DNA of 64,000 nucleotides from an uncultured Syntrophaceae bacterium (GTDB lineage: Bacteria; Desulfobacterota; Syntrophia; Syntrophales; UBA5619): assembly GCA_964433455.1 (NCBI GenBank), contig CAYSSF010000001.1:610-64609 (forward strand). Reading direction: 5' to 3'. Below are positions 3,181 to 22,876 of the stretch, one piece after another. The translations under genes were made by a program, and so were the position numbers. Under the pieces are notes generated by a model. The model was not told the origin of the DNA, searched no databases, and saw only the letters and a list, made by a program, of their open reading frames with translations. Each line of letters opens with the position of its first letter. The first letter of the stretch is position 1.

Positions 3181-4454
3181 TCGTCTTCGCGACCACCTTT
3201 GTCGGACTGCTGTGCCTCTCCGCCCCTATTATTGTGGCTCTCGGCGGCTGCTCTCTCGCCTATGCCCTCTTCAGCGGAAACATGCCGGTCACCACGCTGA
3301 TTCAAACCATCTTCGGCGGTCTGGCCACCTTTCCGCTGCTCGCCATCCCATTGTTCATGCTGGCCGGAAATCTGATGAACGAGGGGGGGATCACAGAGGA
3401 GCTGATCCGCTTCGCCCGTCTGCTGCTGGGCCACATCCGGGGAGGACTGGGCCACGCGACGATTCTTGCCTGCGCGATCTTTGCGGCGATCACCGGGGCG
3501 GCGGTGGCAACCGCCGTGGCCATCGGCATGGTGATGATCCCGGCGATGAAGAAGGCCGGATATGACGAGGAAGTGGCCGGCGCGCTGACCTGCACGGCCG
3601 CCTGCATGGGGCCCGTCATCCCGCCCAGCATCCCGTTCATCATCTATGGCGTCACGGCCAACGTGTCGATCGGCGCGTTGTTTCTGGGCGGCGTCCTCCC
3701 CGGCCTCCTGTTGGGCGCCGCGCTGATGATCTATATTTACTTTCTTGCGGCCCGACGCAAATATCCCCGCGACGCGAAGGCGCCCATCAGGGAACTCCTC
3801 ATCGCCGCATCGAAGGCGGTTCCGGCGCTGTTCATGCCGGTGCTGATCCTGGGCGGCATCCTGGGCGGCATCTTCACCCCCACCGAAGCGGCAGGCGTCG
3901 CGGTGGTCTACGCGTTGATCGTGGGGATGATCATCAACCGGAAGCTGGGTTTCAACGACCTTCCGAAGGTCTTTCTAAGGGCCGGGCTGGAATCGGGGAT
4001 GGTGATGATGCTGATCGCGATGTCGGAGCCGTTTGCGTGGATCATCGCGGTGGACCAGATCCCCCAGCTTCTGATCGACTGGATCTCCTCACTGACGGCA
4101 TCGCCCTGGCTGATCCTGCTGTTCATCAACCTCTTCCTGCTCCTCCTCGGGATCCCGCTGGAGACCGCCCCCGCGTTGGTCATCGTGACGCCCGTGCTGG
4201 CGCCCATTGCCGTCCATCTGGGGATCGACCCGGTGCACATGGGGATCGTCATCTGCCTGAATCTGGTTCTGGGATTGATCACGCCGCCGGTGGGCGCGGT
4301 GCTCTTTGCGGTCTGCGGCGTCACCGGAATGTCCCTCGACCGCCTCAGCCGGGCGATCTGGCCCCCCTTTCTGGTCTCACTGGCGGTCCTGGCCGTGGTC
4401 ACCTATATCCCCTGGCTGAGCACCTGTCTGCCCAGGCTTTTCCTGGGCCGCTAA
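3177..4454 (+). CDS. dctM: TRAP transporter large permease (DctM family)
   Basis: 425-aa polytopic membrane protein with 'LAIPLFMLAGNLMNEGGIT' and 'TPPVGAVLF'. Confidence 0.93.
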   Translation: MIVFATTFVGLLCLSAPIIVALGGCSLAYALFSGNMPVTTLIQTIFGGLATFPLLAIPLFMLAGNLMNEGGITEELIRFARLLLGHIRGGLGHATILACAIFAAITGAAVATAVAIGMVMIPAMKKAGYDEEVAGALTCTAACMGPVIPPSIPFIIYGVTANVSIGALFLGGVLPGLLLGAALMIYIYFLAARRKYPRDAKAPIRELLIAASKAVPALFMPVLILGGILGGIFTPTEAAGVAVVYALIVGMIINRKLGFNDLPKVFLRAGLESGMVMMLIAMSEPFAWIIAVDQIPQLLIDWISSLTASPWLILLFINLFLLLLGIPLETAPALVIVTPVLAPIAVHLGIDPVHMGIVICLNLVLGLITPPVGAVLFAVCGVTGMSLDRLSRAIWPPFLVSLAVLAVVTYIPWLSTCLPRLFLGR

Positions 4455-4483
4455 GGAAGAGCCTGACCGGAAGACTTCGCGTC

Positions 4484-5257
4484 CTATCTGGCGTGGAATG
4501 TCTTGTTGTGACGGCGCAACCGTTCCACTATTTTTTCCACGGAGGAAACGGTGAGAAGCCTTTTCTCCACGAAGTACCTGCCAATGCGGGGCTGCATCAG
4601 GCGCTGCCACCCCAGAATCAAACGGAGCTCATCCGGCGTCAGATAGCCGCCGCGCAATGCAACCTCTCCGAACTTTTCCCCCCACCGGCGCTGCTTCAGG
4701 ATTTCCCGGAGATCGGCTTCATACAGCCATCCCCATCGCAGGGCGATATTGCCGACCAGCGGACGCCGGACCTTCTGCCAAAGAATGGCATCGATCAATT
4801 GCCGATATGAAATATAACCGGAATAATGCACGAATTGCCCAAACAGAAGCACCCGTTTGGGCAGCGTCCCCATGAAAAAATCGCGCCGGACATCTTCCGG
4901 CGACGCACCGGTCCGTTTTGTCTGCGTTCCGGCCCAGGTGCGCATCCGCTCTGAAGGTGGATACGGTCTTTTCCGGAAAGAATCGTCGATCAACCTGAAC
5001 CGCCAGGGGTTCTCAAGATAATCCTGTAACTCCCGATAGGCGGCATTGACCTCCTTGAACCGCTCTTCCAGATCGGCGGGCAGACGGGCAAGGGCAACCG
5101 CCCGGTCCGGGTGGGTCTCGAGGGCCCTTTCCCGATACGCCGCCTTGAGCCCCGGCATCCGGAGATAGCGGAGAAAATCGGCCGAAACGTCGATTCCCGA
5201 TCCGAAGAGGACGTGACAGGCATGATACAGTTGCGAAGAGTTGATTTCCGTTTCCAT
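4484..5257 (-). CDS. J-domain protein with four C-terminal MshEN/T2SSE_N-like 24-residue repeats
   Basis: J-domain 'LKAAYRERALETHPDR...FKEVNAAYRELQDYL' with HPD motif. The C-terminus carries repeats of the type xxGxxxxxxGxxxxxxLxxxLxxQ. ATG 5257 has an AGGA upstream; TTG 5293 is an alternative start. Confidence 0.75.
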   Translation of the reverse strand: METEINSSQLYHACHVLFGSGIDVSADFLRYLRMPGLKAAYRERALETHPDRAVALARLPADLEERFKEVNAAYRELQDYLENPWRFRLIDDSFRKRPYPPSERMRTWAGTQTKRTGASPEDVRRDFFMGTLPKRVLLFGQFVHYSGYISYRQLIDAILWQKVRRPLVGNIALRWGWLYEADLREILKQRRWGEKFGEVALRGGYLTPDELRLILGWQRLMQPRIGRYFVEKRLLTVSSVEKIVERLRRHNKTFHAR

Positions 5258-5371
5258 CCGTCCTGCTTTCAAGACTGTTCCGACTTTTGGCAAGTCCCGC
5301 CTGGTTGATGCAAATTATATGCGACACAGGCAAAAAAAGCGATAACAGAAAACGGAACCCCCCCTTTCGGT

Positions 5372-7096
5372 CTAACCCTCCAGAACCTCCCGCACTTTCT
5401 GTGAGAGGTCGGCGATTTTGAAGGGTTTCTGGATGAAGCCGTTGCAGCCTTTCTCCATGATCCTCCGCGCTTCGCCGTCAACACTGTACCCACTGGAAAG
5501 GATCACCTTGAGGTCGGGATCGATGTCCCGCAGGGCTTCGAAGGTTTTTCCCCCTCCCATCCCCGGCATGATCAGGTCCAGGATGACCAAGTCGATCTCG
5601 CGGCCCTTCTCCATGTAGAGCGCGATCGCCTCCTGCCCGCATCCCGCAATCATGACCCGATAACCCAGACTTTCCAGAATTTCCTTGGTCACGGCGATGT
5701 TGTTCTTCTCATCATCCACGAGCAGGATCGTCTCCCGGCCCGACAGGATCTTCTGCTCTCCTGTCGCCTCCCGGAACGCCATCGTTTTGCTCGACGCAGG
5801 AAGATAGATGTCGAACCTCGCCCCCATCCCCGGCTCGCTTTCCACCGTGATGAAACCGCCATGGTTTTCTATGATGCCGTAAACGGAGGCCAAACCCATG
5901 CCTGTCCCATGTCCGGTTTTTTTCGTCGTGAAAAAGGGTTCGAAGATGCGTTCCTTCGTTCTCGCGTCCATTCCTATCCCCGTATCCGTCACGGAAATCT
6001 TCACATATCCCCCCGGTTGCAGCCCACGGGGTTTGACCGCCGGTTCGTCAAGCGCCACATTCCGTGTCGCCAGGGACAAATCTCCGCCCTCGGGCATCGC
6101 CTGCCAGGCGTTGATATAGAGATTCAAAAGGACCTGCTCGATCTGTCCCTGATCCGCCTCAACCAACCACAGTCCGTTCTCGAATTCATGATAAACCGAG
6201 AGTTCCTTGTGTGTGCAGATGAATATGTCGAAACTCTTTTCGATGACATGGTTGAGGTTTGTCGGTTTGACCTCGTATTTTCCCCCCCGTCCGAATCCCA
6301 GCAGTTGTCTGGTCAGGCGGGCCCCGCTGCCGACCTGTTCCTCGATCTTCTGAAGCCGGACATGATGGGGATGATCCGGCGGCAGATCCATCTGCATCAG
6401 GGAAGTGTACCCCTGGATGCCAGCAAGAATATTGTTGAAATCATGGGCAATCCCCCCGGCAAGCGTACCGATCGCCTCCATTTTCTGGCTCTGCAGGAGT
6501 TGGTCCTGGATCAGTTTCCGTTCGCACTCCAGATGTCTGCGCTCCGCCAAATTCCGCTCCATCTGATTGTAGAGCAGCGCGTTGTCAAGGGCGATCGATG
6601 CGAGTTCCGCCAGCCGTTCGAGCATGGCCAACTCGTCTTTTTCAAACGGCCGCCCGAACCGATAATGGGCCAGGCCGAGAATTCCTGCCACGCGGTTTCC
6701 GGATTTCAGCGGGACGGCCGCCGTGGAATGGCGCATGGCGTAATGATCGATGTTCGCCCGCCCGGACCAGTTGCTGTAGTCCTCGATATAAACCGTGCCG
6801 CCCGTGCGCCAAACCTCTCCGGAGATTCCTCGGGAGGTCTCGAAACGCGATCCGACCATATCGGCGATCCGGCCGATCGCCGCCTTGAATTCCATATCGT
6901 CCGTCAGGGGGTCATAAACGTTGACCCACCCTTCATCGGCGCCGAACAGGTGGGTCGCCCGTACGACAATGGCTTGAAACAGCTCCCCCAGGTCCATGCG
7001 CCGCATCAGGTCCAGGGTGGTTTCATGGAACGCTTCGAGGTACGAATTCTGACGCCGCAAGGCTTCCTCGGTTTTTCTGCGCTCGTTATCCTGCAA
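5372..7096 (-). CDS. Hybrid sensor histidine kinase (GAF-HisKA-HATPase-REC)
   Basis: 574 aa. N-terminal GAF-like region, H-box 'GIAHDFNNIL', 'TDTGIGM' and 'GTGMGLA' ATP-lid motifs, and a C-terminal receiver 'ILLVDDE...LDLIMPGMGG'. Confidence 0.9.
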   Translation of the reverse strand: MQDNERRKTEEALRRQNSYLEAFHETTLDLMRRMDLGELFQAIVVRATHLFGADEGWVNVYDPLTDDMEFKAAIGRIADMVGSRFETSRGISGEVWRTGGTVYIEDYSNWSGRANIDHYAMRHSTAAVPLKSGNRVAGILGLAHYRFGRPFEKDELAMLERLAELASIALDNALLYNQMERNLAERRHLECERKLIQDQLLQSQKMEAIGTLAGGIAHDFNNILAGIQGYTSLMQMDLPPDHPHHVRLQKIEEQVGSGARLTRQLLGFGRGGKYEVKPTNLNHVIEKSFDIFICTHKELSVYHEFENGLWLVEADQGQIEQVLLNLYINAWQAMPEGGDLSLATRNVALDEPAVKPRGLQPGGYVKISVTDTGIGMDARTKERIFEPFFTTKKTGHGTGMGLASVYGIIENHGGFITVESEPGMGARFDIYLPASSKTMAFREATGEQKILSGRETILLVDDEKNNIAVTKEILESLGYRVMIAGCGQEAIALYMEKGREIDLVILDLIMPGMGGGKTFEALRDIDPDLKVILSSGYSVDGEARRIMEKGCNGFIQKPFKIADLSQKVREVLEG

Positions 7097-7120
7097 AGAC
7101 TTCTCGCCTCCATAATACGC

Positions 7121-7486
7121 TCAATGATAATGACTGCTCACATACATCGCGATCCGTTCCCTGTCTTTCTCGGTGATTTCCATGAATTGGTTGCCGACTT
7201 CGTATTGGTAACCTGCTCCCGGTTTCGCCTTCTGTATCCAGGCAACCTCGGAAACGGCTTTAATCGGTTCCGGTGCGGCTGGTATATCCAGTTCCAGGAT
7301 CAGACGGCATGCGGTTGAGAAAAACTCGTTCGCCATAAAGCGCAAACCGCCCGTGCTTACATCACACGTGACAGAACCGGCGTCCACCGTCTCGGCCCCG
7401 TCTTGAAGTGCCTTGTACCGGATTGAAAAACTGGGTTTCACCCTTGGAGATTGTCTTTTTTCTGCATGGATCTTGGCTTCATTCAT
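7121..7486 (-). CDS. PilZ domain protein
   Basis: Canonical c-di-GMP motifs RQSPR (RxxxR) and DVSTGG (DxSxxG). ATG 7486 has AGGGGA 8 nt upstream. The longer start at 7645 has no RBS but cannot be excluded. Confidence 0.72.
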   Translation of the reverse strand: MNEAKIHAEKRQSPRVKPSFSIRYKALQDGAETVDAGSVTCDVSTGGLRFMANEFFSTACRLILELDIPAAPEPIKAVSEVAWIQKAKPGAGYQYEVGNQFMEITEKDRERIAMYVSSHYH

Positions 7487-7963
7487 CGTCTTGTCCCCTT
7501 TTTTTAAATGTGGTGAGAATAACCCGGTGAATGATGTTAGGGTTATCTCTTTCTTGAATCTTGCCGCAATTGCCCTATCCACGATTTGCGCTATCCGGAT
7601 CGGTTCTTGTTTAAGAAGTGAGACCAACTCCTTTTCAGTTCGCATCGGCAGGATCTGCGACGCCGAAAATCACGCCAACGCCTTCTCATTACTTTGGCAG
7701 GCAATATTGCAATAACAGAGCCAATGGGTCAGTTTTTTATAATATCGAGTTGTTTCAGATTGATATCTTGTTTTAATTTGGACGCTACGACGGAGAGAAT
7801 ATGACGGAATCATCATTTTCCGGGGAAATCATAAAAATGATGGTTTTTCCATAAAACGGAGAAGGGCGGGGATGGATTGGTCCGGATTTGGAATGTCGTT
7901 TGTCCGGAGAAAACTTGCGCCAGTCGTGCCGGTGAAGGAGCGATTATTCCCAAAGGTGGCTTT

Positions 7964-7979
7964 TGGCATATTTTTTGAT
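7964..7979 (+). promoter_or_regulatory. Sigma-54-like promoter, variant -12 (TGGCAT-N5-TTGAT)
   Basis: The GG-N10 spacing is correct, but the -12 element reads GA instead of GC. Lies 137 nt upstream of the CheX-like gene. Confidence 0.3.
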
Positions 7980-8115
7980 GTGACAGGTCCGTCCGGCTGG
8001 GATGATAGCGGGCTTTCGTGGCAGAGGAGCGGTCGTGGCGGGTGGCGACGAAAAGCAACCGCACCCGGCAGATCCCTTGGTGGAAGGAAAATGGAGCGAT
8101 GTTTCAGCAGATTCC

Positions 8116-8967
8116 ATGGATGTAAAATTCATTAATCCCTTTTTGCATGGTACGATCGAAGTCCTGAAAAAGATGGCTTTTGTCGAGCCTCGCCCCGGCA
8201 AGGTGTATCTCAAGAATACCTCTCTTGCCCATGGTGATGTCTCCGGCATCATAGGAATTACCGGCGACATGACGGGTTCCCTCGCCATCAGTTTCGGCGA
8301 GCGCTGCATTTGTCACCTTGTCGGTTCCATGCTCGGAGAGACTTATGTCAAGGCCAACCAGGATGTATTTGACGCGGTCGGTGAGATTACCAATATGATT
8401 TCCGGTGTGGCGCGGACCTATATGGAAAAGGAAGGCATGCAGGTCTATGCCGCGATCCCGTCCGTTGTCTATGGGGAAAACCACACGATCAACCATATCC
8501 TCAAGAGTCCGAGCATCGTGATTCCCTTTGTCACCGATCAGGGCTCTTTTGTGGTCGATGTCTGCATCAAGAGAAGCGGGGAAGAATCGAAATCGTTGAG
8601 GGAATATGGGGTCGTCAATCGCAAGACCCCGGTTCTTCCGGCAACACCCGGAAATCAAAACCCACTGCCGGAGAAGATTCCGGCGGCCACATGGGGGGGC
8701 AAGAAAGAGGTCCTGAAAAAGAAATTGCGAGAAATCACAGCCATCCGGGATGACATGATCAAGCAACTCAGCGAAAAACCCTTTATGGAGATGACTCAAA
8801 GAAAGTTGTTGAAAAAGCGTATCCCCATAGCGGAGGCGCAGATCAAGCGTTTGAGGCTGGACCTCTCGACCGCCGAGATGCTCTCCAATATTTCCACGGG
8901 CGATCTGGAGCATCCCAAGCTGGTCCGGCATTACCAGCACTATGGAGCGGAGAAACCAAAAACTTGA
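8116..8967 (+). CDS. CheX-like phosphatase domain with ~125-aa basic/coiled-coil C-terminal extension
   Basis: The N-terminus MDVKFINPFLHGTIEVLKKM aligns residue-for-residue with the cheX at 18023 (MNVQFINPFLEGTMDVLKTM). 'GEITNMISGVAR' is conserved. The start was chosen from that alignment. Confidence 0.8.
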   Translation: MDVKFINPFLHGTIEVLKKMAFVEPRPGKVYLKNTSLAHGDVSGIIGITGDMTGSLAISFGERCICHLVGSMLGETYVKANQDVFDAVGEITNMISGVARTYMEKEGMQVYAAIPSVVYGENHTINHILKSPSIVIPFVTDQGSFVVDVCIKRSGEESKSLREYGVVNRKTPVLPATPGNQNPLPEKIPAATWGGKKEVLKKKLREITAIRDDMIKQLSEKPFMEMTQRKLLKKRIPIAEAQIKRLRLDLSTAEMLSNISTGDLEHPKLVRHYQHYGAEKPKT

Positions 8968-9054
8968 AAATGGGTTCATTGCCCATCCATGCATCATTGT
9001 CATAAGCGTCAAAGTTTTACACAGAGAGTGCCATTTTATTGGCGAAGGCGAGGA

Positions 9055-9459
9055 ATGGAGGTTCCTTTGGATAGAAAACTGTTGATTGTGGACGATGAGC
9101 GGTCCATCCGCGATCTTTTTGAGTCGGCTTTCAGCGATCCCGGTTATCAGATCCATCTGGCCGAGGATGGTGAACAGGCGCTTGATATTCTGAAACGGCA
9201 CGATATCAAACTGATTTTTCTGGATCTGAAACTGTTCGGAATGAACGGCATTGAACTGTGCAGAAGGATCAGGAAAGATAAGCCGATTTCCATTATTTAT
9301 GCGATTACCGGCTGGGCGGGTCTTTTTGAAGTCGAAGAGTGCCGGGAAGCGGGCTTCGATGATTTTTTTACCAAACCGGTCCAACTGGAGATCATCTTCA
9401 AGGCTGTTGAAAATGCCTTTGAAAAACTTGAACGCTGGGCCAGGAGATATCCCGTCTGA
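9055..9459 (+). CDS. Single-domain response regulator
   Basis: MEVPLDRKLLIVDDE...FLDLKLFGMNG...FFTKP receiver motifs. In-frame ATG 9055 within ORF 8989..9459. Confidence 0.85.
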   Translation: MEVPLDRKLLIVDDERSIRDLFESAFSDPGYQIHLAEDGEQALDILKRHDIKLIFLDLKLFGMNGIELCRRIRKDKPISIIYAITGWAGLFEVEECREAGFDDFFTKPVQLEIIFKAVENAFEKLERWARRYPV

Positions 9460-9517
9460 TCACGGACGGCTTCCGGGAAGGACCAACGGAAGCAACCGAT
9501 ACGTCCCATGCCGGACC

Positions 9518-10957
9518 TTACTCCTCGCTTGTCTCCAAGCTATCGTCCATAATCTTGAAACGTTTCAGTTTTTCAACAAGCGTCGTCCGGTTCAGGTTGA
9601 GCAGTTTGGCCGCCCTGTTTTTGACACCGCTGGCCTTGCTGAGTGCCTGGAGCAGAAGATCTTTTTCAAATTGGCTCACCATATCGTTGAAATTGAGGCC
9701 GTCCACCGGTAAATCAATGTGCCGGGAAGAAGAAGCGGAAGTGGAAGTGGAAGTGGAAGTGGAAGTGGTCGGCACATTTCCCTGATTGTGAAGTTTTGGC
9801 GGGAGATCGCCGACCTCGATCTCACCATCGTCTTTCATGACGACAAACATTTCGATCAGGTTTTCCAGTTCCCTCACATTGCCGGGCCACGGATAGCGCA
9901 TGAAATAATGGAGGACATCCGGAGAAAAGCGGGCGAGGTGTTTCTTTTTCAACTTGTTAAATTTTGACAGGAAGTGATTGGCCAGAATGGCGATATCCGG
10001 TCCCCGGTCGCGCAGCGGCGGGAGATGAATCGGGATCACATTGATCCGATAAAAGAGATCTTCACGAAATTTCTTTTCAATCACCGCCTGTTCAAGATCT
10101 TGATTGGACGCCGCGATGATCCGAACATCCGCACGGATGGTTTTAATGCCGCCGATGCGTTCGAATTCCTTTTCCTGAATGACCCGCAGCATCTTGACCT
10201 GCAATGCCGGGCTCATGTCGCCGATTTCATCAAGGAAGATCGTTCCCCCCTGGGCCAACTCAAAACGTCCGATGCGGCAGCGAATGGCGCCGGTGAAGGC
10301 CCCTTTTTCATGACCGAAGAGTTCGCTTTCGAGAAGTTCCTCAGGGATCGCGCCGCAATTGACGGGAACGAGAGGCTGGTTTTTCCGGTCGCTGTTGTAA
10401 TGAATGGCCCTTGCCACCAGTTCCTTTCCGGTTCCGCTTTCACCGCCGATCAGGATGGTACTGTCCGAGGCCGAAACTTTTTCAATCGTTTCAAAGACGC
10501 TTTTCATGCAGTCGCTGTAACCGATCATCTTGCCAAAATCATACTTCTCTCGGAGATGCCCCTTTAAGGTCAAGTTTTCTTCTTTGAGCTGGACGAAGGA
10601 GAGGGCCCGGGAGACGGTCAACTTGACAAGATCATCCTTCAGCGGTTTCACAATGTAATCAAAGGCCCCCAACTTCATGGCGTCTACGGCGGTGTTCACC
10701 GTTCCGTATCCGGTAATCACGACGACCACCTGGTCCGGATTCATCTCCTTGCTGAATTTGAGCAGTTCCAGGCCATCGGCCAGGGGCATTCTTAAATCGG
10801 TGATGAGCAGGTCATATTTTTCCTCCACCAGGGCATCCATGGCCTTCCTGCCATTTTCGACCGCCATGACGTCGTAATCGCTCATGGTTAATAATTCTGA
10901 AAGGTTCGCGCGGCTCAGGTCATTGTCCTCGGCAATCAAGATTCTGGGGTTCTTCAT
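9518..10957 (-). CDS. Sigma-54-dependent response regulator (NtrC/FlgR/FleR family)
   Basis: REC domain, AAA+ domain (GESGTGKE Walker A, GAFTGA loop 'EKGAFTGA') and a C-terminal Fis-type HTH. ATG 10957 ([12 protein letters not shown]); GTG 10969 is an alternative start. Confidence 0.92.
9737..9768. repeat. Hexanucleotide microsatellite (GGAAGT)x5 plus partial unit
   Basis: Read directly from the sequence. It encodes (Thr-Ser)n, '[12 protein letters not shown]', in the AAA+/HTH linker of the sigma-54 activator. Confidence 0.95.
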
Positions 10958-11147
10958 ATTGTCTCTCACCGAGGTTCCAATGATGATGGGTCAGCCGGGA
11001 AATGTTTTTTCAATTAACATATAGGATAAACCGGATTAGAAAACAATAGGCAACCACGCGGTTGCGCCAAAATATTTGCACGGCGGAGATGACGGCCTAT
11101 TCCATGCGTTATGAATTTTACACGAAAGAAACAGATTATCCTTCATA

Positions 11148-11163
11148 TGGCATAAATATTGAA
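11148..11163 (+). promoter_or_regulatory. Sigma-54-like promoter, variant -12 (TGGCAT-N5-TTGAA)
   Basis: Correct GG-N10 spacing with GA at -12. Lies ~97 nt upstream of the cheR ATG. Confidence 0.3.
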
Positions 11164-11259
11164 GTGCACCGGTGAAGAATAAAGCTGTCCCTGTCGAGGG
11201 AAGGGATGCTGTCCAGGATGGCAGCCATAAACTGAACCGGATCGCCTTTGATTTTTGCC

Positions 11260-12093
11260 ATGAACGCTTCCGACCTGAAGGATATGGATTATGAGCGAAT
11301 CAGCCGCCTCGTTTACGAGCAGTGCGGCATCAATCTCCATGAAGGCAAGAAAGAGCTGGTGAAGGCCAGACTCGGCAAGCGGCTCAGAGAGGGGAACTTC
11401 AAATCCTTCGGAGAGTACTACCGTTATGTGACGACCGATGACGGGACGGCGGAATTGATTGCGATGATCGACTCCCTTTCGACAAACCTGACCTACTTTT
11501 TCAGAGAAGAGAGCCATTTTCAAAAATTACGCACCCTGATTGCTTCAAAGGCCAAAATGCCCAACAAGGAGGGACTGCCGGAAAAGTTGCGGATCTGGAG
11601 CGCCGGTTGTTCGACGGGGGAAGAACCCTACTCTCTTGCGATGACGGTCGTTGAAAGTTTAAACGGGTCATCCGGAGACGTCAAAATTATGGCGACGGAC
11701 ATTTCCACCAGGGTATTGCAGACGGCCGATAAAGGGATTTTCCCCAAGGATAGGCTGAACAATGTGCCTTCTGCGATCCTGAAGAGATATTTTCAAATGG
11801 GTTTCGGGAGCTATGAGGGCCAGTTCCTTATTAAAAAAAACATCCGGGGCATGATCCGATTCTCGCGATTCAACCTGATGGAAACGCCGCCCCCCAATTA
11901 CCGATTTGACGTCATTTTCTGCAGAAACGTGATGATCTATTTTGACAAGGCAACCCAGGAGTCGCTGGTTCGCCGGTTTCAGCAGTGCCTGAACAAGGGG
12001 GGGCATCTGTTTATCGGCCATTCTGAGAGCCTGACCGGATTGTCTCATGAATTGAAATATGTTGAACCCAGTGTCTACCGGAAGCAAGGTTAA
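11260..12093 (+). CDS. cheR: Chemotaxis protein methyltransferase
   Basis: 'WSAGCSTGEEPYSLAM' SAM-binding motif and 'IFCRNVMIYF'. ATG 11260; TTG 11248 is an alternative start. Confidence 0.92.
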   Translation: MNASDLKDMDYERISRLVYEQCGINLHEGKKELVKARLGKRLREGNFKSFGEYYRYVTTDDGTAELIAMIDSLSTNLTYFFREESHFQKLRTLIASKAKMPNKEGLPEKLRIWSAGCSTGEEPYSLAMTVVESLNGSSGDVKIMATDISTRVLQTADKGIFPKDRLNNVPSAILKRYFQMGFGSYEGQFLIKKNIRGMIRFSRFNLMETPPPNYRFDVIFCRNVMIYFDKATQESLVRRFQQCLNKGGHLFIGHSESLTGLSHELKYVEPSVYRKQG

Positions 12094-12099
12094 GGGCGT

Positions 12100-12582
12100 A
12101 TGAGCGATATTATCGTGGGAATTTCCGATCTGAAGGTGAGCAACCATCCGGGAGATGCGCTGATCACCTATGCCCTGGGCTCCTGTATCGGTATCGCCGT
12201 TTTCGATCCGAAGGTGAAGGTCGGGGGGCTGCTGCACTTCATGCTTCCGGACTCTTCGCTGGACGAGAACAAGGCGAGGACAACGCCGTGCATGTTTGCC
12301 GATACGGGCATTATCGCTCTCTTCAAGGCTTGCTACGCCCACGGGGCGGAAAAAAGGAGAATGGTGGTCAAGGTCGCCGGCGGTGCGAATATTCTGGACG
12401 ATACAAACTATTTTCGCATCGGTCAGAAGAACATCATGGCGATGAGAAAGATTTTTTGGCGCAACAATGTCTTGATCGACAGCGAAGAGACAGGGGAAAG
12501 TTTCAACCGAACCGTGAGACTCGAGCTATCGAGTGGACGGTGCATCCTGAAAAGCTCAAACGGCACGGTGAAAGACCTATGA
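12100..12582 (+). CDS. cheD: Chemoreceptor glutamine deamidase
   Basis: 160 aa with 'ALGSCIGIAVFDP' and 'GLLHFMLP', typical of CheD. Confidence 0.9.
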   Translation: MSDIIVGISDLKVSNHPGDALITYALGSCIGIAVFDPKVKVGGLLHFMLPDSSLDENKARTTPCMFADTGIIALFKACYAHGAEKRRMVVKVAGGANILDDTNYFRIGQKNIMAMRKIFWRNNVLIDSEETGESFNRTVRLELSSGRCILKSSNGTVKDL

Positions 12583-13427
12583 TCATCACCAGCATACTCA
12601 AATCCGTGGACATGATTCCCGCCTTTCCGGCAGCGATCCAGAAGGTCTCTGAACTGCTCAGAGATGAGGATTACGCTGTTGCCGATGTGGTCAATGTGAT
12701 CAAGCATGATCAGGCGATTGCAGCCAACATTCTCAAGATAAGCAATTCCGCCTACTTCAGCGCAAGGCAAAAAATCAAGACCATTCACGACGCGGTTGTC
12801 TATCTCGGCCAGAAACAACTGGTCCGTGCCGTGCAGACGGCCGGCATATCAAAAATATACCAAAAAGGCGGCAAGGGGTACGCTTCGCAAGCAAGCGATT
12901 TTTGGGAACATTCCGTGGCTGTCGCGCTGATGTCTCAAATTCTCTGCAGAAAGATTCAAGGGCGGGAAGATCCGATCCTCTATACGGCGGCGCTGCTGCA
13001 TGACGTCGGCAAGGTGATCATGGGAGAATACGTCCACGAATATTTTCAAAAGATCATCGATTGCGTCACGGAGACGAAATGTTCCTTTCTCGAGGCCGAA
13101 GAAGAGTTTATCGGGATCAACCACGCCAATCTTGGAGGCCGGATTGCCGAACACTGGAACTTCCCCTCTGAAATCAGGGACGCCATCGCATATCATCACC
13201 GGCCCGACCTGCTGGAGGAAGAGGGCAGCACCCACGCCTCTTTGGTTTACTTATCCGATCAGGCCTGCCTGATGATGGGATTGACGGGCGGTTTCGACGC
13301 CCTGGCGTATACGGGTCTTGAGGATGTCATGCGGCATTTCGACCTCAGAACGGCGGATCTGGAGCAGAGCTTGATCGAACTGCTGAACGAATTGGAAAGA
13401 GCACGGGATTTAATGAATATCGGATAA
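12579..13427 (+). CDS. HDOD domain protein
   Basis: ATG 12579 overlaps the cheD stop (ATGA). 'IPAFPAAIQKVSELL', 'DQAIAANILKISNSAYF' and 'AALLHDVGKV' match the HDOD pattern. Confidence 0.85.
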   Translation: MIITSILKSVDMIPAFPAAIQKVSELLRDEDYAVADVVNVIKHDQAIAANILKISNSAYFSARQKIKTIHDAVVYLGQKQLVRAVQTAGISKIYQKGGKGYASQASDFWEHSVAVALMSQILCRKIQGREDPILYTAALLHDVGKVIMGEYVHEYFQKIIDCVTETKCSFLEAEEEFIGINHANLGGRIAEHWNFPSEIRDAIAYHHRPDLLEEEGSTHASLVYLSDQACLMMGLTGGFDALAYTGLEDVMRHFDLRTADLEQSLIELLNELERARDLMNIG

Positions 13428-13445
13428 GTTCGTCATGAGGGGACT

Positions 13446-13877
13446 ATGTCATTCAATGTTATGATCGTCGACGATTCAGGCGCCATGCGGTCCGTCATCA
13501 AGAAGGTCATCACCATCTCGGGTTTCAAGATGAGCCTCTGCCTGGAGGCCGGCAATGGCCGGGAAGCGCTGGAGCGATTGCAGGGAAACTGGGTGGATGT
13601 CATCATCTCGGACATCAACATGCCGGAGATGGGAGGGTTGGAGCTGCTGCAGGCGTTGAGCCAGGACACGCTTTATCGAAATATTCCCGCGATCATTGTG
13701 TCCACGGAGGGAAGCAGCGAGCGGATGAAGGAGGCCCTGGATCGAGGGGCAAAGGGATTTATTAAAAAACCCTTTCTGCCGGAAGATATCCGGAGCGTCC
13801 TCTATGACGTGATAGGAGTGGGAACCGATGGCGAATATCAAGACGATTCAAGAAATGCTGACGAGGGCGATTTTTGA
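13446..13877 (+). CDS. CheY-like response regulator
   Basis: 'VMIVDDSGAMR', 'ISDINMPEMGG' and 'GFIKKPF'. 143 aa with an acidic tail. Confidence 0.88.
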   Translation: MSFNVMIVDDSGAMRSVIKKVITISGFKMSLCLEAGNGREALERLQGNWVDVIISDINMPEMGGLELLQALSQDTLYRNIPAIIVSTEGSSERMKEALDRGAKGFIKKPFLPEDIRSVLYDVIGVGTDGEYQDDSRNADEGDF

Positions 13878-14289
13878 AGTATTTGAAAAGATGTATTACG
13901 TCTTTTCCGAACCCCTGAGGGGCAACGGCGGGAATTACCGAATGAAATCGACCATAACCTTCAGCGGTTCCGCCAACGGACGGATCCAGATTCTTCTCTC
14001 CAGGGGGATCGCCGTGGCGATGGTGAAAAATATGTTGAATCTCGAGCAGAATGAGATCGATCTCCCGATCATGGCGGATTGCGTCAAGGAGTCGCTCAAC
14101 ATGATCTGCGGGAATTTTTTACGGAAGCTCGATCCGGAGCGGGTGTTTGATCTTTCGTTCCCGACGTTCGAAATGATTTCGGATGATGGCGATGAAGGTC
14201 CGGAGGCAACGGATCATCGGATGGATTTAACCTTTGTTGCGGATGACGGCCATATCAAGGTGATCCTGACCGCGCCGGATATGCTTTAG
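13828..14289 (+). CDS. CheX/CheC-like phosphatase-domain protein
   Basis: 153 aa. 'RAIFEVFEKMYY' and 'VKESLNMICGNFL' resemble the CheX-like domain. Overlaps the preceding gene by 50 nt, so the start is uncertain. Confidence 0.65.
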   Translation: MANIKTIQEMLTRAIFEVFEKMYYVFSEPLRGNGGNYRMKSTITFSGSANGRIQILLSRGIAVAMVKNMLNLEQNEIDLPIMADCVKESLNMICGNFLRKLDPERVFDLSFPTFEMISDDGDEGPEATDHRMDLTFVADDGHIKVILTAPDML

Positions 14290-14367
14290 CCGGCTCATCC
14301 CCGCGTGCATTGTTACCGTTGGCCATCCGCCGGACGGGCGGGATCAAGCGTTTGCCGCTGACCATGA

Positions 14368-15405
<1,038 letters not shown>

Positions 15406-15408
15406 TCC

Positions 15409-17601
15409 ATGAATTACAGTACATTGACCAAGTCGATCGATGATCTCGCCTCGGATCTGGTTTTTCTCGACAGCAGAGAGGTTGACATCCCTTCATCGGG
15501 TAAATTTATGAACCGCCTGGAGGAGATTATCAAGGCCGCCGAACCCCTCTCCATGTCCACAGTGACGCGTGTGGCCACGGGACTGAATCATCTTCTGGAA
15601 AAGATGGTCTTCGATGCATTGGAAGACAAGGAGGAGGGGTTCAACGCTTTTGAAAAAGGCATCGCGTTGATGCAGGAAATCACCCAGCATGGCGGGCAGG
15701 ACAACGACGGCCGCGTCGACGTTCAGCCGTTTATGGAAACCGTTGCATCGCTTACCGGCGTTCCCGCCCTTCGGGATATGAATTCCGCCGGCGTCGTCGA
15801 GGAACGGAAGGCCCCCGCGCCGGAAGAAAAGAGTGAGGTCTCCGATCCCTCGCTGGCCTCTGATTTTGTTGCGGAGGGGCTGGAATATATCGATGAAATC
15901 GAGGTCAATATCCTCAACCTGGAGCAGAACCCGGAAGACACGGACTGCATCAACGCGATCTTCAGACCCTTTCACTCGATCAAAGGGGTAGCCGGATTTC
16001 TCAACCTGGAAAAAATTAGAGATCTCGCCCACAATCTGGAAAACCTCCTGGACAAGGCGAGAAACCACGAACTGCAGGTCGCCCCCCCGTTGATCGATCT
16101 CATTCTGGACGGCACGGATGCGCTGAAGGCGCTGATCCTGCGGTTGAAGGATGAACTTGAAGGCCAGCCGCCCACCCCCTTTCAGATCGATCTTGCGGCC
16201 CTTCTGCAAAAAATCCGGGCCGTGGAAAAGGGGGAAGAGGAAGCGCCCGCAAAGAGGAAACTGGGGGAAATCCTCGTCAGCGAAGGGGTGGTGGCGCAGG
16301 ATGACGTCGATCAGGCGCTCATGGCTCCCCAAGCGCTGCCATCCAAGAAGATTGGAGAACTCCTGATCGAAGAAGGCAAAGCGACGACAAGACAGGTCTC
16401 GCAGGCCCTGAGAAAACAGACGGAACAGTCATCGGACTCGTCTACACTGCGGGTCGACACCCGCAAACTGGACGATTTGATCGACATGGTCGGCGAGTTG
16501 GTGATCACACAGTCCATGATCCATCAGGATCTCAGCCGGCAGGTGAACGCCGACAAAAGCCTGATGCGGGATATCACCCAGTTTTTCCGAATCACCTCCA
16601 GCCTGCAGAGAACGTCGATGAGTCTCCGGATGATCCCCATTCGTCAGACCTTCCAGCGCATGTCGCGATTGATCAGGGATCTGGCCAAAAAATCGGGAAA
16701 GATCGTAAACGTCGAAATGGACGGGGAAGAGACGGAGATCGACCGAAACATGGTGGATGAAATCTATAATCCGCTGGTCCACATGGTCCGCAATGCCGTC
16801 GATCACGGGCTGGAAACGCCGGAGGATCGGGTGAAGGCGGGCAAGTCGGAGAAGGGGGCGATCAGCCTGCGGGCCTATCATCGCGGAGGAAATATCGTCA
16901 TCGAGATCTCCGACAACGGCCGGGGATTGAACAGACAGAAGATCCTGAACAAAGCCCTGGAGAAAGGGCTGATCACCGATGCGGGGGATTTTGCCGAGCA
17001 GGATATCTACAAGATGATTCTCCTGCCCGGTTTTTCGACCGCGGATAAGGTCACCGATGTCTCCGGCCGCGGCGTGGGAATGGATGTGGTGAAGCAATCC
17101 GTGGAGAAGCTGCGCGGCAAGATGGATATCGAAAGCAGACCCGGCAACGGAACGACTTTCACCACAAGATTTCCGTTGACGCTTGCCATTATTGACGGGA
17201 TGATGGTAAAGGTGGGCCAGGAGGTCTATATCATACCGACGATGGCCATCCGCCAGACCCTGCGGCCGTCCCGGGAACAATATAATGTCGTCGTCAACAA
17301 GGGAGAGACCATCAATGTGATGGGTCGATTGCTCTCGTTGGTCAGGTTGTCCGATGTCTTGGGGGGAAAATCTGTACGAGAGGATCCATGGGAGGCGATC
17401 GTCGTGGTCGTCGAAGGGGAAAATCGCACAAAATGTCTCCTCGTTGACGAGGTCATCGGCAAAGCCGAAGTGGTGATCAAGAGTCTCGGATCGGGTTTGA
17501 AACACATCAAGGGGGTTTCGGGTGGCGCCATTTTGGGAGACGGACGAGTCGGGCTGATTCTGGATCCGGAAGGGCTGTTCGAGCTAAGCGAGGAGAAGTG
17601 A
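15409..17601 (+). CDS. cheA: Chemotaxis histidine kinase CheA (atypical N-terminus and P2 region)
   Basis: Hpt 'FRPFHSIKGVAGF', HATPase 'ISDNGRGLN' and 'GRGVGMDVV', and a C-terminal CheW-like P5 domain. 730 aa. Confidence 0.95.
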   Translation: MNYSTLTKSIDDLASDLVFLDSREVDIPSSGKFMNRLEEIIKAAEPLSMSTVTRVATGLNHLLEKMVFDALEDKEEGFNAFEKGIALMQEITQHGGQDNDGRVDVQPFMETVASLTGVPALRDMNSAGVVEERKAPAPEEKSEVSDPSLASDFVAEGLEYIDEIEVNILNLEQNPEDTDCINAIFRPFHSIKGVAGFLNLEKIRDLAHNLENLLDKARNHELQVAPPLIDLILDGTDALKALILRLKDELEGQPPTPFQIDLAALLQKIRAVEKGEEEAPAKRKLGEILVSEGVVAQDDVDQALMAPQALPSKKIGELLIEEGKATTRQVSQALRKQTEQSSDSSTLRVDTRKLDDLIDMVGELVITQSMIHQDLSRQVNADKSLMRDITQFFRITSSLQRTSMSLRMIPIRQTFQRMSRLIRDLAKKSGKIVNVEMDGEETEIDRNMVDEIYNPLVHMVRNAVDHGLETPEDRVKAGKSEKGAISLRAYHRGGNIVIEISDNGRGLNRQKILNKALEKGLITDAGDFAEQDIYKMILLPGFSTADKVTDVSGRGVGMDVVKQSVEKLRGKMDIESRPGNGTTFTTRFPLTLAIIDGMMVKVGQEVYIIPTMAIRQTLRPSREQYNVVVNKGETINVMGRLLSLVRLSDVLGGKSVREDPWEAIVVVVEGENRTKCLLVDEVIGKAEVVIKSLGSGLKHIKGVSGGAILGDGRVGLILDPEGLFELSEEK

Positions 17602-20031: not shown

Positions 20032-21345
20032 ATGATTGACTTTGCCAAATACCATCATCTCCTGGGACAGACGAATCCCATCCGGATTCATGGCAAGGTC
20101 ACTGAAATCATCGGACTGGTGGTGGAGGGAAACGGTCCTGCCGCCTCCATCGGTGAGCTTTGCGGAATCTTTCCGGCCGGATCGGACAAACCTGTCACCG
20201 CCGAAGTGGTTGGGTTCAAGAAGGGGAAGGTCCTCTTGATGCCGCTGCAAACCATTCAAGGGTTGAGCCCGGGATGCAAGATCGTCTCACTCGGCCGGAA
20301 AGCCGGCGTGAATGTGGGGAAAAACCTGCTGGGAAGGGTCATCGACGGCCTGGGGAACCCGATTGACAATAAAGGTCCAATTGAATGTGAAAACGACTAC
20401 CCCATCTACGCCGATCCGATCAATCCGCTCGAGAGGGGGCGCATCGCCGAACCGGTGGACCTCGGCATTCGGGCATTGAATGGCGTTCTCAGTTGCGGGA
20501 AAGGACAGCGAATGGGAATCTTTGCCGGATCAGGGGTCGGCAAAAGCATCCTGCTGGGCATGATGGCCAGGAATACCAATGCGGATGTGAATGTCATCGG
20601 TCTGATCGGCGAAAGGGGGAGAGAGGTTCGGGAGTTTCTCGAAAAAAGTCTCGGCAAGAAGGGGCTGGCAAGATCCGTCGTGGTGGTCGCGGGATCGGAT
20701 ATGCACCCGCTGATACGGATGCGGGCCGCATACGTGGCAACATCGATATCCGAGTATTTCCGTGATCTCGGGAAAAATGTGCTGCTGATGGTGGACTCCC
20801 TGACGAGATTTGCGATGGCGCAGCGGGAAATCGGCCTTTCGGTAGGAGAACCGCCGGCGGCCAAAGGCTATACCCCTTCCGTATTCAGCCTTCTTCCCAA
20901 ATTGCTGGAGCGTTCCGGCATCATGGAGAATCGCGGCAGCATCACCGGTCTTTATACGATTCTTGTGGAAGGGGACGATTTCAATGAACCGATCGCGGAC
21001 GCGGCAAGATCGATCCTCGATGGCCATGTCGTTTTGAGCCGGGAGCTCGCCAGCAAGAACCATTATCCGGCCATCGATGTGCTTCAAAGCATCAGCCGCG
21101 TCATGCTGGACATCGTCGATGACGAACATAAACAAATGGCCCGGAAAATCATGCAGATCCTGGCCACGCACAAAAAAGCGGAGGATCTCATCAACATCGG
21201 CGCGTATGTGCAGGGGAGTAACCCCGAGATCGATTATGCCGTCACGATGATCGATCGCGTCAACGGATTTTTGAAACAGGACATCGACGAGAAGATCGAT
21301 TTTCAACAGACCATCAAGCAGATGCGGGCGCTATTTGCGAAGTAG
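20032..21345 (+). CDS. fliI: Flagellum-specific ATP synthase
   Basis: Walker A 'GSGVGKSILLG' and 'LLMVDSLTRFAMAQREI'. 437 aa. Confidence 0.96.
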   Translation: MIDFAKYHHLLGQTNPIRIHGKVTEIIGLVVEGNGPAASIGELCGIFPAGSDKPVTAEVVGFKKGKVLLMPLQTIQGLSPGCKIVSLGRKAGVNVGKNLLGRVIDGLGNPIDNKGPIECENDYPIYADPINPLERGRIAEPVDLGIRALNGVLSCGKGQRMGIFAGSGVGKSILLGMMARNTNADVNVIGLIGERGREVREFLEKSLGKKGLARSVVVVAGSDMHPLIRMRAAYVATSISEYFRDLGKNVLLMVDSLTRFAMAQREIGLSVGEPPAAKGYTPSVFSLLPKLLERSGIMENRGSITGLYTILVEGDDFNEPIADAARSILDGHVVLSRELASKNHYPAIDVLQSISRVMLDIVDDEHKQMARKIMQILATHKKAEDLINIGAYVQGSNPEIDYAVTMIDRVNGFLKQDIDEKIDFQQTIKQMRALFAK

Positions 21346-21387
21346 GCAAACGGGCGTTGAACTGCTGCGGCTGCAGGTGTAAAGTAA

Positions 21388-21999: not shown

Positions 22000-22081
22000 C
22001 CTGGCGCCGGGGCGGGTATGTCCAGGGACGACAGGGGCACGAATGATTTATCCATTGGAAGTCCATTATGGGGGATAAAAC

Positions 22082-22855: not shown

Positions 22856-22876
22856 AAAGAAGGGACAGGTCGAAAT

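Follow-up and report, generated by a model that had tools for sequence, protein, structure and literature searches.

J-domain proteins that end in a tandem MshEN_N module, (MshEN_N)2, form, as judged from sequence profiles, a large and widespread class-C family not described before. One member is encoded in the window, i.e., the whole analysed stretch of 64,000 nucleotides from an uncultured Syntrophaceae bacterium. The C-terminal tail of this protein is, according to its sequence and to structure prediction, a compact eight-helix domain and a tandem duplication of a 53-residue MshEN_N unit. The explanation which on the whole we slightly favour is that of an independent J gene with a tandem MshEN_N tail that senses c-di-GMP and gates the J domain. 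A description of a fusion of a J domain with (MshEN_N)2 was not found in the literature, in agreement with the initial annotation, which could not assign the combination to a described system.

The J gene lies on the minus strand together with genes for a hybrid kinase and a PilZ protein, with gaps of 24 nt (7097–7120) between the PilZ and kinase genes and of 114 nt (5258–5371) between the kinase and J genes, as annotated initially and as confirmed from the list of open reading frames:

7121–7486, minus strand: gene for a single-domain PilZ protein (RQSPR ... DVSTGG; Pfam)
5372–7096, minus strand: gene for a hybrid histidine kinase, GAF-HisKA-HATPase_c-REC, 574 amino acids (open reading frame list and Pfam)
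4484–5257, minus strand: gene for the J-domain protein, ATG at 5257, 257 amino acids; class C with C-terminal tandem (MshEN_N)2
5003–5245, minus strand: J domain, residues ~5–85 (Pfam DnaJ), with HPD at residues 49–51 (nt 5105–5113)
4886–4990, minus strand: linker, residues ~90–124, disordered, basic and poorly conserved
4775–4846, minus strand: MshEN-like motif 1, LFGQFVHYSGYISYRQLIDAILWQ, residues 138–161 (family alignment)
4688–4759, minus strand: MshEN-like motif 2, LVGNIALRWGWLYEADLREILKQR, residues 167–190, partly degenerate
4604–4675, minus strand: MshEN-like motif 3, KFGEVALRGGYLTPDELRLILGWQ, residues 195–218, the most canonical of the four
4517–4588, minus strand: MshEN-like motif 4, RIGRYFVEKRLLTVSSVEKIVERL, residues 224–247, partly degenerate

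The open reading frame of the J protein extends from 4484 to 5293, and the ATG at 5257 agrees with the N-termini of the homologues. That of the PilZ protein extends from 7121 to 7645; the internal ATG at 7486 is a plausible start because it is preceded by AAGGAG. The earlier domain assignments of the two upstream genes were confirmed: the PilZ protein is recognized by Pfam PilZ (PF07238) with 38.3 bits (cutoff 22.5), its translation showing RQSPR for RxxxR and DVSTGG for (D/N)xSxxG, and the kinase has the Pfam domains GAF, HisKA, HATPase_c and Response_reg.

The J domain, too, had been recognized correctly by its HPD motif. Pfam DnaJ (PF00226) scores 31.4 bits (cutoff 27.8), with positions 17–55 of the 63 profile positions matched; H49, P50 and D51 are invariant in an alignment of 87 homologues, and the family profile matches solved J-domain structures with E-values down to 5e-7. 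In the AlphaFold model the J domain has a pLDDT of 80–90, matches 2ctw (Foldseek probability 0.82) and contains a short additional helix between helix I and helix II. The linker of ~40 residues that follows (pLDDT 30–32) differs among the aligned homologues in both length and sequence. The J domain is the only Pfam match in the protein, in which neither a G/F region nor a zinc finger nor a DnaJ C-terminal domain was found, and the NCBIfam DnaJ equivalogs score 11–25 bits, far under their cutoffs of 290–620. A canonical DnaJ or CbpA (class A/B) was therefore rejected, since other Pfam domains are lacking and the equivalog scores are below the cutoffs.

That the C-terminal ~120 amino acids are MshEN-like, as initially proposed, is supported by sequence profiles and by the predicted fold. 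NCBIfam NF053729 ("c-di-GMP_motif, MshE-related") matches the tail in 3 stretches with 44.6 bits (cutoff 38, E = 8.8e-12), and the tail profile matches PilF (E = 1e-6), PilF GSPII-B (E = 0.01–0.05) and MshE (E = 0.069). Comparison with the (MshEN_N)2 module of Glov_2742 using hhalign gave a probability of 96.8% and an E-value of 2.8e-10, all four motifs being covered. The AlphaFold model of the tail (pLDDT 94.1, pTM 0.78) was compared with 350,542 PDB chains, of which the best 8 neighbours are all c-di-GMP-bound MshE or PilF GSPII-B (rmsd 1.3–2.1 Å over 55–57 columns, 25–30% identity, probability 0.80–0.98). The predicted fold has, for example, an rmsd of 1.3 Å to 5htl_A over 57 columns (Foldseek probability 0.98). 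It should be noted that the Foldseek E-values for the tail exceed 1, owing to the small size of the matched unit (~57 residues). Of the profile searches proposed at the outset, those for DnaJ and for an MshE-related motif were thus positive, while Pfam T2SSE_N (PF05157) gave no match on the J protein at E ≤ 1; the latter model spans the complete MshEN domain, of which the J protein lacks the C-terminal part (the T2SSE_N1 subdomain). A failure of the repeats to score as T2SSE_N had been named at the outset as evidence against the proposal, and this outcome was in part obtained.

The four tandem repeats of 23–24 residues noticed by the initial annotation proved to be real. They span nt 4517–4846 and start 29, 28 and 29 residues apart; this is the MshEN_N layout of two motifs with a spacer of ~5 residues, so that four motifs make up two units. 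When the family profiles of motifs 1–2 and of motifs 3–4 were aligned with hhalign, 51 columns were in register (E = 2e-7, probability 93.7%), and profiles of single motifs matched each other with E-values of 1e-8 (motifs 2 and 3), 9e-6 (2 and 4), 1.6e-5 (3 and 4) and 4e-4 (1 and 3). The motif residues are kept across the 87 homologues (31–96% identity). Motif 1 has Leu at position 1, G3 in 92%, G10 in 92% and Q24 in 100% of the family; motif 3 has Lys at position 1 in 89%, G3 in 94%, G10 in 90% and L21 and Q24 in 100%, and agrees with the relaxed motif of Wang et al. (2016) at all positions. In motif 2, G3 is found in 99% and G10 in just 43%, and position 24 is Arg in 95% and never Gln, the window protein having a Gln at position 23. 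In motif 4, position 1 is Arg in 68%, G3 is present in 100% and Gly10 in 21%, and position 24 is Leu, Phe, Gln or Met. Gln24 in both motifs of a unit, which together with Gly10 characterizes MshEN_N, is thus not retained, motifs 2 and 4 being the ones that deviate. The hydrophobic positions 2, 6, 7, 11, 12, 17 and 21 are at least 76% conserved in the four motifs. Position 1 is L, L, K and R in motifs 1–4, which fits (R/K/L); an extended MshEN consensus, (R/K/L)LG..., admits Leu at this position (PMC11731258). Behind motif 4 the protein ends after a long last helix with an invariant H250-N251.

Homologues of the same length and architecture as the window protein make up 120 clusters. There are 277 relatives among species-representative genomes, and at least 428 representatives at 50% identity reach E ≤ 1e-30 with the C-terminal profile. 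The organisms are mostly Syntrophales, Smithella and Desulfobacterales, and include Scalindua; beyond Desulfobacterota and Planctomycetota (Scalindua) the family reaches Calditrichia and Methylomirabilia. Of 10 distant representatives that were sampled, 9 have the module C-terminal to a J domain. The proteins are currently annotated as "hypothetical", as "DnaJ domain-containing" or even as "CbpA".

We give binding of c-di-GMP by the tail an even chance or slightly better; it is plausible, but the missing closing Gln of motifs 2 and 4 calls for caution. The positions that contact the ligand are among the best conserved (G3 92–100% in the four motifs, Q24 invariant in motifs 1 and 3), and isolated MshEN_N units can bind c-di-GMP without the C-terminal subdomain (PMC5013675). 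Wild-type GSPII-B of PilF, with K167 and L196, binds c-di-GMP at 6 nM and its K167L variant at 2 nM (PMC11731258), so that nanomolar binding tolerates either Leu or Lys at position 1. It is nevertheless conceivable, if rather unlikely, that the tail is a degenerate MshEN_N fold that binds no nucleotide and serves client binding, dimerization or localization, in which case the J protein would be a class-C co-chaperone of the ordinary kind whose targeting domain is unusual. Positions 24 and 10 of motifs 2 and 4 deviate throughout the family, and many MshEN domains are predicted or have been shown to be non-binders, e.g., XpsE. GSPII-A of PilF, which does not bind, has His and Arg in place of the two Gln residues, and to restore binding these had to be exchanged together with other residues; even a perfect motif is no guarantee, since the domain context can block binding (PMC12002112). 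Moreover, W160, E194, A200, R202, F229 and H250-N251 are family invariants outside the c-di-GMP consensus, which suggests another conserved surface. Against loss of binding speak the invariant Gln24 in motifs 1 and 3 and Gly3, near-invariant in all four motifs, both of which contact the ligand rather than belonging to the core, the score of the curated "c-di-GMP_motif" model above its cutoff, and the fact that the nearest structures are ligand-bound forms. A different cyclic dinucleotide such as 3'3'-cGAMP, with the altered second motifs reflecting a changed specificity, is very improbable as the ligand. MshEN is reported to bind cGAMP as well (PMC5013675), and the deviations in motifs 2 and 4 are systematic and conserved in the family, unlike random decay; the guanine-contacting positions (position 1, Gly3 and the hydrophobic triads) are, however, retained in all four motifs, and components of c-di-GMP signalling are found in the neighbourhood.

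The PilZ protein, the kinase and the J protein were originally thought to form one co-oriented module, and as a co-transcribed unit they would bring together c-di-GMP sensing by PilZ and the MshEN-like tail, a phosphorelay and Hsp70 recruitment. The common strand and the short gaps are in line with this, as are the upstream kinase genes in four other contexts, and no terminator is predicted between the genes; the absence of one between the kinase and J genes means that co-transcription by read-through is possible in the window strain. The module was not borne out by comparison with 84 other contexts (80 genome loci and 4 close metagenome contigs), in which the trio is not kept, and we consider it very improbable. 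A PilZ gene adjoins the J gene in 0 of the 84, i.e., in the window alone, and a kinase gene lies directly upstream in 4 (L027, L030, L057 and L081; 3 of the 80 genome loci). Only for the kinase of L081, one of the 4 close relatives, has orthology been shown (76% identity); this kinase has an additional PAS region at its N-terminus. Directly upstream of the J gene the four closest relatives (74–79% identity) differ, having sCache and MCP genes, sCache, MCP and kinase genes, an OMP decarboxylase gene on the other strand, and CheB and REC genes, respectively. At 54–65% identity the J gene is flanked by genes on the opposite strand, and in L001, L004 and L005 its neighbours are divergent or convergent. 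Hybrid kinases of this kind are frequent in these genomes; L041 and L043, for example, have them on the opposite strand. In the window lineage the J gene lies at the margin of a chemotaxis/flagellar region, and the signalling genes in front of it are exchanged between strains, being a PilZ and a hybrid kinase gene in the window; the PilZ protein and the kinase are therefore neighbours rather than obligatory partners. The same genome region encodes, besides the PilZ protein, a REC-GAF-HD-GYP protein as c-di-GMP components. A conserved neighbour hinting at a client of the J protein was not seen.

The J gene is probably a unit of its own with its own promoter, for which there is a candidate in the 114-nt gap:

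5314–5319, minus strand: putative TATAAT box, 56 nt upstream of the ATG

The box is part of a block that is conserved upstream of a homologue, P0020 (GTTTTCTGyTATCGCTTTTTTT...TATAATTT), and in 6 more distant loci a conserved TGnTAT(A/G)A(T/A) box precedes the J gene whatever its upstream neighbour. We call the box a putative promoter because a promoter consensus scan reported no site at its position.

For the independent J protein the following mechanism is conceivable. The C-terminal module would sense c-di-GMP, and sensing would gate the J domain, either at the delivery of a client to DnaK or by exposing or hiding the J domain. The level of the second messenger would thus be tied to Hsp70-dependent remodelling; in the window lineage, parts of the chemosensory or flagellar machinery are conceivable as clients. 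Stimulation of DnaK by the J domain, ligand control of the co-chaperone function and the nature of the clients are what we infer. More tentative, and to be taken with some doubt, is the generalization to a widespread family of c-di-GMP-gated Hsp70 co-chaperones in which c-di-GMP toggles the hand-over of clients to DnaK.

The usual outputs of c-di-GMP are transcription factors, PilZ proteins, secretion ATPases and glycosyltransferases. To our knowledge a direct link between c-di-GMP and Hsp70 has so far come only from the PilZ-DnaK proteins of Myxococcus, and the c-di-GMP effectors of syntrophic and sulfate-reducing Desulfobacterota and of the anammox organism Scalindua are, as far as we know, poorly charted. 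The J + (MshEN_N)2 family would add a second, phylogenetically separate route from c-di-GMP to Hsp70 and, if the proposal is true, a direct post-translational path from the second messenger to protein remodelling that is new for MshEN-type receptors. With 257 amino acids, solubility and two separable domains the J protein would also be a simple test system, which could show how variants of the second motif (Arg or Leu for Gln) affect binding by MshEN_N and whether tandem units take up one or two ligands.

As in MshE from Vibrio cholerae and GSPII-B of PilF from Thermus thermophilus (5HTL, 8PDK; PMC5013675, PMC11731258), the tail has 24-residue motifs with a spacer of ~5 residues, in which helix-turn-helix pairs pack into a four-helix unit (predicted rmsd 1.3–2.1 Å); Gly3 and the hydrophobic residues are kept, as is Gln24 in motifs 1 and 3, and GSPII-B likewise has Leu or Lys at position 1. 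Unlike MshE and PilF, the J protein has neither the MshEN_C/T2SSE_N1 subdomain nor an ATPase, its unit is duplicated and joined to a J domain, and the second motifs are without the closing Gln. Tandem modules were listed by Wang et al. (2016): cce_1044 from Cyanothece, which stands alone, Glov_2742 from Geobacter lovleyi, which is (MshEN_N)2-CheX, and MXAN_7396 from Myxococcus xanthus, which is (MshEN_N)2-REC-cyclase. The ITC measurements of that study covered other proteins, so that it gives no binding constant for the tandem modules. The J protein resembles them in having four motifs without the C-terminal subdomain, in its deltaproteobacterial lineage and in its link to chemotaxis genes, and it resembles Glov_2742 in the last motif, which is without Gln. 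Its partner is, however, an N-terminal J domain rather than CheX, REC or a cyclase, an architecture absent from Supplementary Table 4 of Wang et al. (2016).

The fusion has its closest analogues in the PilZ-DnaK and PilZ-DnaJ proteins of Myxococcus. In the PilZ-DnaK proteins CsdK1 and CsdK2 and in the PilZ-DnaJ proteins of M. xanthus (PMC10313047, PMC8316039) a receptor domain for c-di-GMP is likewise fused to a part of the Hsp70 machine, which suggests control of chaperone action by the second messenger. The receptor there is PilZ, however, and the best-studied cases carry Hsp70 itself and not a J co-chaperone. These PilZ fusions are found only in Myxococcales, whereas the J + (MshEN_N)2 proteins are found in Syntrophales, Smithella, Desulfobacterales, Scalindua and others.

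Besides AtcJ of Shewanella, DjlA and CbpA are further specialized short class-C J-domain proteins of bacteria. AtcJ shares with the J protein the combination of a J domain with a small non-canonical C-terminal domain, without G/F region, zinc finger and DnaJ_C, and in proteins of the AtcJ type it is the C-terminal domain that assigns DnaK a specialized task (PMC6715715). Unlike in these proteins, the C-terminal domain of the J + (MshEN_N)2 proteins is predicted to have the fold of a nucleotide receptor.

The J protein is encoded by the last of three consecutive minus-strand genes, which are separated by gaps of 24 nt (PilZ/kinase) and 114 nt (kinase/J) and which the ORF list and the Pfam domains confirm as they had been described in the initial annotation:

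7121-7645, minus strand: PilZ gene (open reading frame), with an internal ATG at 7486 that is preceded by AAGGAG
5372-7096, minus strand: hybrid kinase gene, 574 codons
4484-5257, minus strand: J-domain gene, with the ATG chosen to agree with the N-termini of homologues; the open reading frame opens at TTG 5293

The first product has a PilZ domain (38.3 bits, Pfam) and the second GAF, HisKA, HATPase_c and Response_reg domains (Pfam). The DnaJ model, proposed earlier as a check, matches the third at 31.4 bits, above the Pfam cutoff of 27.8, with the HPD motif at residues 49-51. Behind the J domain and a linker there are four repeats (residues 138-161, 167-190, 195-218, and 224-247) with start-to-start spacings of 29, 28, and 29 residues. 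These are no chance pattern, since the two halves of the tail align in register when family profile is compared with family profile (E 2e-7) and since the profiles of the single motifs are related pairwise down to 1e-8.

The repeats had been read as MshEN-like and had been expected to score as T2SSE_N/MshEN. For Pfam T2SSE_N the expectation was wrong: this model gives no match to the J protein at E<=1, the model covering the entire MshEN domain and the J protein being without the C-terminal subdomain. Membership in the MshEN_N family is therefore based on NCBIfam, profile, and fold evidence, and this evidence bears the reading itself out. NCBIfam NF053729 (“c-di-GMP_motif, MshE-related,” a 53-residue unit) matches three stretches with 44.6 bits, the curated cutoff being 38. 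When a profile was built from 28 C-terminal domains, it matched Thermus PilF with all three GSPII domains at E 1e-6, the isolated c-di-GMP-binding GSPII-B domain at 0.01-0.05, and MshE from V. cholerae at 0.069; its other weak matches are the pilus ATPase PilB (E 1.3) and otherwise unrelated proteins. AlphaFold2 predicts that the tail folds into eight helices packed as a compact domain (pLDDT 94.1 and pTM 0.78 when modelled alone; pLDDT 93-96 inside the full-length model). Foldseek with the full-length model yielded mostly noise (KorA and others, probability <0.2) besides MshE, PilF, and J-domain matches, and was redone with the C-terminal model only, which gave a clean list. The best eight matches among 350,542 PDB chains are then all MshE or PilF GSPII, with an rmsd of 1.3-2.1 Å over 55-57 columns, 25-30% identity, and a probability of 0.80-0.98, the E-values being above 1 because the shared unit is very short. 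Finally, the (MshEN_N)2 module of Glov_2742 can be aligned with the family profile through each of the four motifs (probability 96.8%, E 2.8e-10). Together, NF053729, the tail profile, the predicted fold, and the Glov_2742 alignment identify the tail as a predicted tandem (MshEN_N)2 module.

The full-length J protein retrieves 120 clusters at the 90% identity level (32-96% identity), nearly all of 240-285 aa and annotated at most as DnaJ; the labels are “hypothetical,” “DnaJ domain-containing,” and once “CbpA.” The last of these, a JGI label, would make the homologue a DNA-binding protein and was rejected because the CbpA C-terminal domain is absent. Scanning one genome per species gave 277 relatives, of which the best 80 are mostly from Syntrophales, Syntrophaceae, Smithella/Smithellaceae, Desulfobacterales, and Desulfatiglandales, next to Candidatus Scalindua and a small number of bins from other phyla. 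Used for an exhaustive HMMER search, the C-terminal profile matches 428 representatives of 50% identity clusters at E<=1e-30; at E<=1e-10 the number is 1099. The 150 best matches are proteins of 125-378 aa that all carry the module C-terminally, and in ten sampled representatives the N-terminal partner is a J domain nine times and a PHP domain once. Stand-alone or otherwise fused copies of the module were not found by the profile search, which gave only J-linked proteins, fragments, and the one PHP fusion. With its consistent size and architecture, its linkage to the J domain, and an HPD motif that is invariant across the family alignment, the combination of J domain, linker, and (MshEN_N)2 is, as judged from the sequences, cohesive and widespread, with both parts under purifying selection. 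In the PHP protein (P0275, 378 aa), PHP replaces J before the four-motif module, which matches the C-terminal profile at E 1.7e-37; this could be another architecture or two genes joined in the gene call.

Whether the tail binds c-di-GMP has to be judged from the motifs, which were counted by position in 87 homologues of 31-96% identity and whose conservation alternates along the tail:

Conservation of the four motifs of the tail
Motif 1: position 1 Leu; Gly3 92%; Gly10 92%; position 24 Gln, invariant
Motif 2: position 1 Leu; Gly3 99%; Gly10 43%; position 24 Arg, 95%
Motif 3: position 1 Lys; Gly3 94%; Gly10 90%; position 24 Gln, invariant
Motif 4: position 1 Arg; Gly3 100%; Gly10 21%; position 24 Leu/Phe/Gln/Met

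The missing Arg at position 1 is no obstacle, since PilF GSPII-B, with Lys and Leu at this position, binds c-di-GMP at 6 nM (2 nM for the K167L variant), and the MshEN_N consensus has accordingly been widened to (R/K/L)LG... (PMC11731258). MshEN_N units in isolation also bind c-di-GMP without the C-terminal subdomain (PMC5013675), and the invariant surface Gln and Gly, which are ligand contacts in MshE, argue for a kept pocket. On the other hand, in the non-binder GSPII-A the two Gln positions are His and Arg, and with the consensus fully restored this domain bound only after inter-subdomain contacts and the N-cap had been removed (PMC12002112). Moreover, the proteins that Wang et al. tabulate with ITC data (PMC5013675) include no tandem (MshEN_N)2 module. 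With these points weighed against each other, the chances that the tail binds c-di-GMP appear roughly balanced, with a slight lean in favor of binding.

The three genes had also been taken for a co-oriented module, and this claim is not supported. Neither the PilZ nor the kinase of the window has a counterpart beside J in the five genomes closest to it (54-65% identity), where the genes flanking J are often on the opposite strand. An adjacent PilZ was not found elsewhere by tblastn with the window PilZ or by the regular expression RxxxR...[DN]xSxxG, which gave a few candidates 2.5-5 kb off. When all ORFs within 6 kb of J were clustered all-against-all in 80 loci, no neighbor family was shared by more than 21 loci, and synteny was therefore discarded as a clue to function. 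The 21-locus family is a TPR protein, found only in Smithella in convergent orientation together with small HATPase-like and REC-TPR proteins; the remaining neighbors are mutually unrelated (a transhydrogenase in Scalindua, thiolase, MFS transporter, radical-SAM enzymes, and GT2). The Smithella trio (~273-aa TPR-like, ~230-aa HATPase-like, and ~547-aa REC-TPR) lies 40-3000 nt downstream of J at L009, L011, L014, L016, L019-L023, L030, L031, and other Smithella loci, and often, in 11 loci, a GT2 glycosyltransferase gene lies ~116 nt upstream of J on the same strand. A larger frame in which che genes adjoin J is shared with the window by four metagenome contigs, whose J proteins are 74-79% identical to that of the window: three of them have the sigma-54 activator/REC/CheX set, which is incomplete in one of these, the P0020 contig, and CheW, CheR, and CheB are found in the P0015 contig. 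Immediately before J, the gene content is different in all four, being sCache and MCP in one; sCache, MCP, and a kinase orthologous to that of the window (76% identity, PAS region in addition) in another; OMP decarboxylase on the other strand in a third; and CheW-CheR-CheB-REC in a fourth. The PilZ-kinase-J arrangement is not kept in the relatives. At locus L081, the kinase ortholog (3736-5820, 76% identical) has an N-terminal PAS region of ~120 residues that the window kinase (5372-7096) lacks, and sCache and MCP genes occupy the place held by PilZ in the window, which indicates that the cassette upstream of J was recently rearranged.

A consensus promoter/terminator scan of 4300-8100 gave nothing in the 114-nt gap. 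When the upstream regions were read and aligned, a perfect TATAAT was found there, 56 nt before the J ATG, within a stretch also conserved in the P0020 contig; a TGnTAT(A/G)A(T/A) box is in the same place in six more distant loci irrespective of the upstream neighbor. With variable neighbors and a conserved box upstream, the J gene appears to stand on its own, in a slot of changing content that borders a chemotaxis/flagellar region. Since a terminator is not predicted, transcription may run through from the kinase into J in the window strain. CTTGAAA near the start codon was rejected as a sigma-32 −35 box because, 13 nt from the ATG, it falls in the ribosome-binding region. In four related loci (L001, L002, L003, and L071; 58-65% identity) a block TTCATTTTGGGGTGCA ... 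GTTTCATGGTAT(G/A)A lies ~60-110 nt before the J start (at about 5890-5945 in L001-L003 and 316-371 in L071), of which the GTTTCATGGTAT(G/A)A part resembles an extended −10 box and the TTCATTTTGGGGTGCA part could be a regulator site.

The region beside the J gene holds genes for CheR, CheD, HDOD, CheY, CheX, CheB, CheA, FliI, a REC-GAF-HD-GYP protein, flagellin, and FliD. It is large (8002-17601 and 20032-35835), has the J gene at its edge, and also contains CheX-like, REC, and sigma-54 activator genes; the CheX after CheY is thus a second one, CheA is a CheA-CheW, FliI is a FliI-type ATPase, and FliD is unusually long (1028 aa). Outside the clade of the window, che genes are near J in only 3 of the 80 loci. 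Individual features are:

8002-8967, plus strand: CheX-like protein, listed ORF of 321 aa
9518-10969, minus strand: sigma-54 activator (REC-AAA-HTH_8) with a Thr/Ser-rich repeat linker before the HTH, around nt 9750
23870-25354: REC-GAF-HD-GYP (HD_5) protein
27014-29377, plus strand: 4Fe-4S/FrhB-FdhB (F420 hydrogenase beta-like)-polysaccharide pyruvyl transferase fusion, 787 aa
29442-31070: GT2-TPR protein, after the pyruvyl transferase fusion

The last two genes, just upstream of flagellin, may form a locus for modifying flagellin or polysaccharide. The orthologs of the CheX-like protein in three related contigs have 282-283 aa, and its true start is therefore probably an internal Met (MDVKFINPF...); the ~145 residues after its CheX domain have no Pfam match.

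Class-C J-domain proteins recruit DnaK via the HPD loop, and their C-terminal domain normally gives specificity. In the window protein this domain has a nucleotide-receptor fold. The most economical model, which is plausible but goes beyond the MshEN_N-like fold and motifs and the intact J domain, is that of a co-chaperone responsive to c-di-GMP. The ligand, which stabilizes MshEN_N in MshE and PilF, would on binding make the tandem units more rigid or change their orientation, and this could change client binding, self-association, or J-domain accessibility across the flexible basic linker, so that Hsp70 recruitment would plausibly be regulated. A first guess at the clients would be chemosensory or motility proteins, because of the recurrent che context in the clade and because (MshEN_N)2-CheX and CheA-MshEN_N fusions are known (Wang et al., 2016; PMC5013675).

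The initial annotation could not assign the combination to a described system, and this still stands: a J-(MshEN_N)2 or DnaJ fusion is absent from the architecture table and supplement of Wang et al. (2016), and in the searchable papers nothing relevant was found on MshEN fused to DnaJ or a J domain. Glov_2742 from Geobacter lovleyi, given as (MshEN_N)2-CheX (Wang et al., 2016; PMC5013675), has the tandem module in common with the window protein, but its partner is CheX rather than a J domain. In Myxococcus, the PilZ-DnaK proteins CsdK1 and CsdK2 and PilZ proteins with a DnaJ domain (PMC10313047, PMC8316039) likewise join a c-di-GMP receptor to the Hsp70 system, the receptor there being PilZ. 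Both domains, tandem (MshEN_N)2 modules, and receptor-Hsp70 fusions are thus already known; what appears new is the combination J-(MshEN_N)2.
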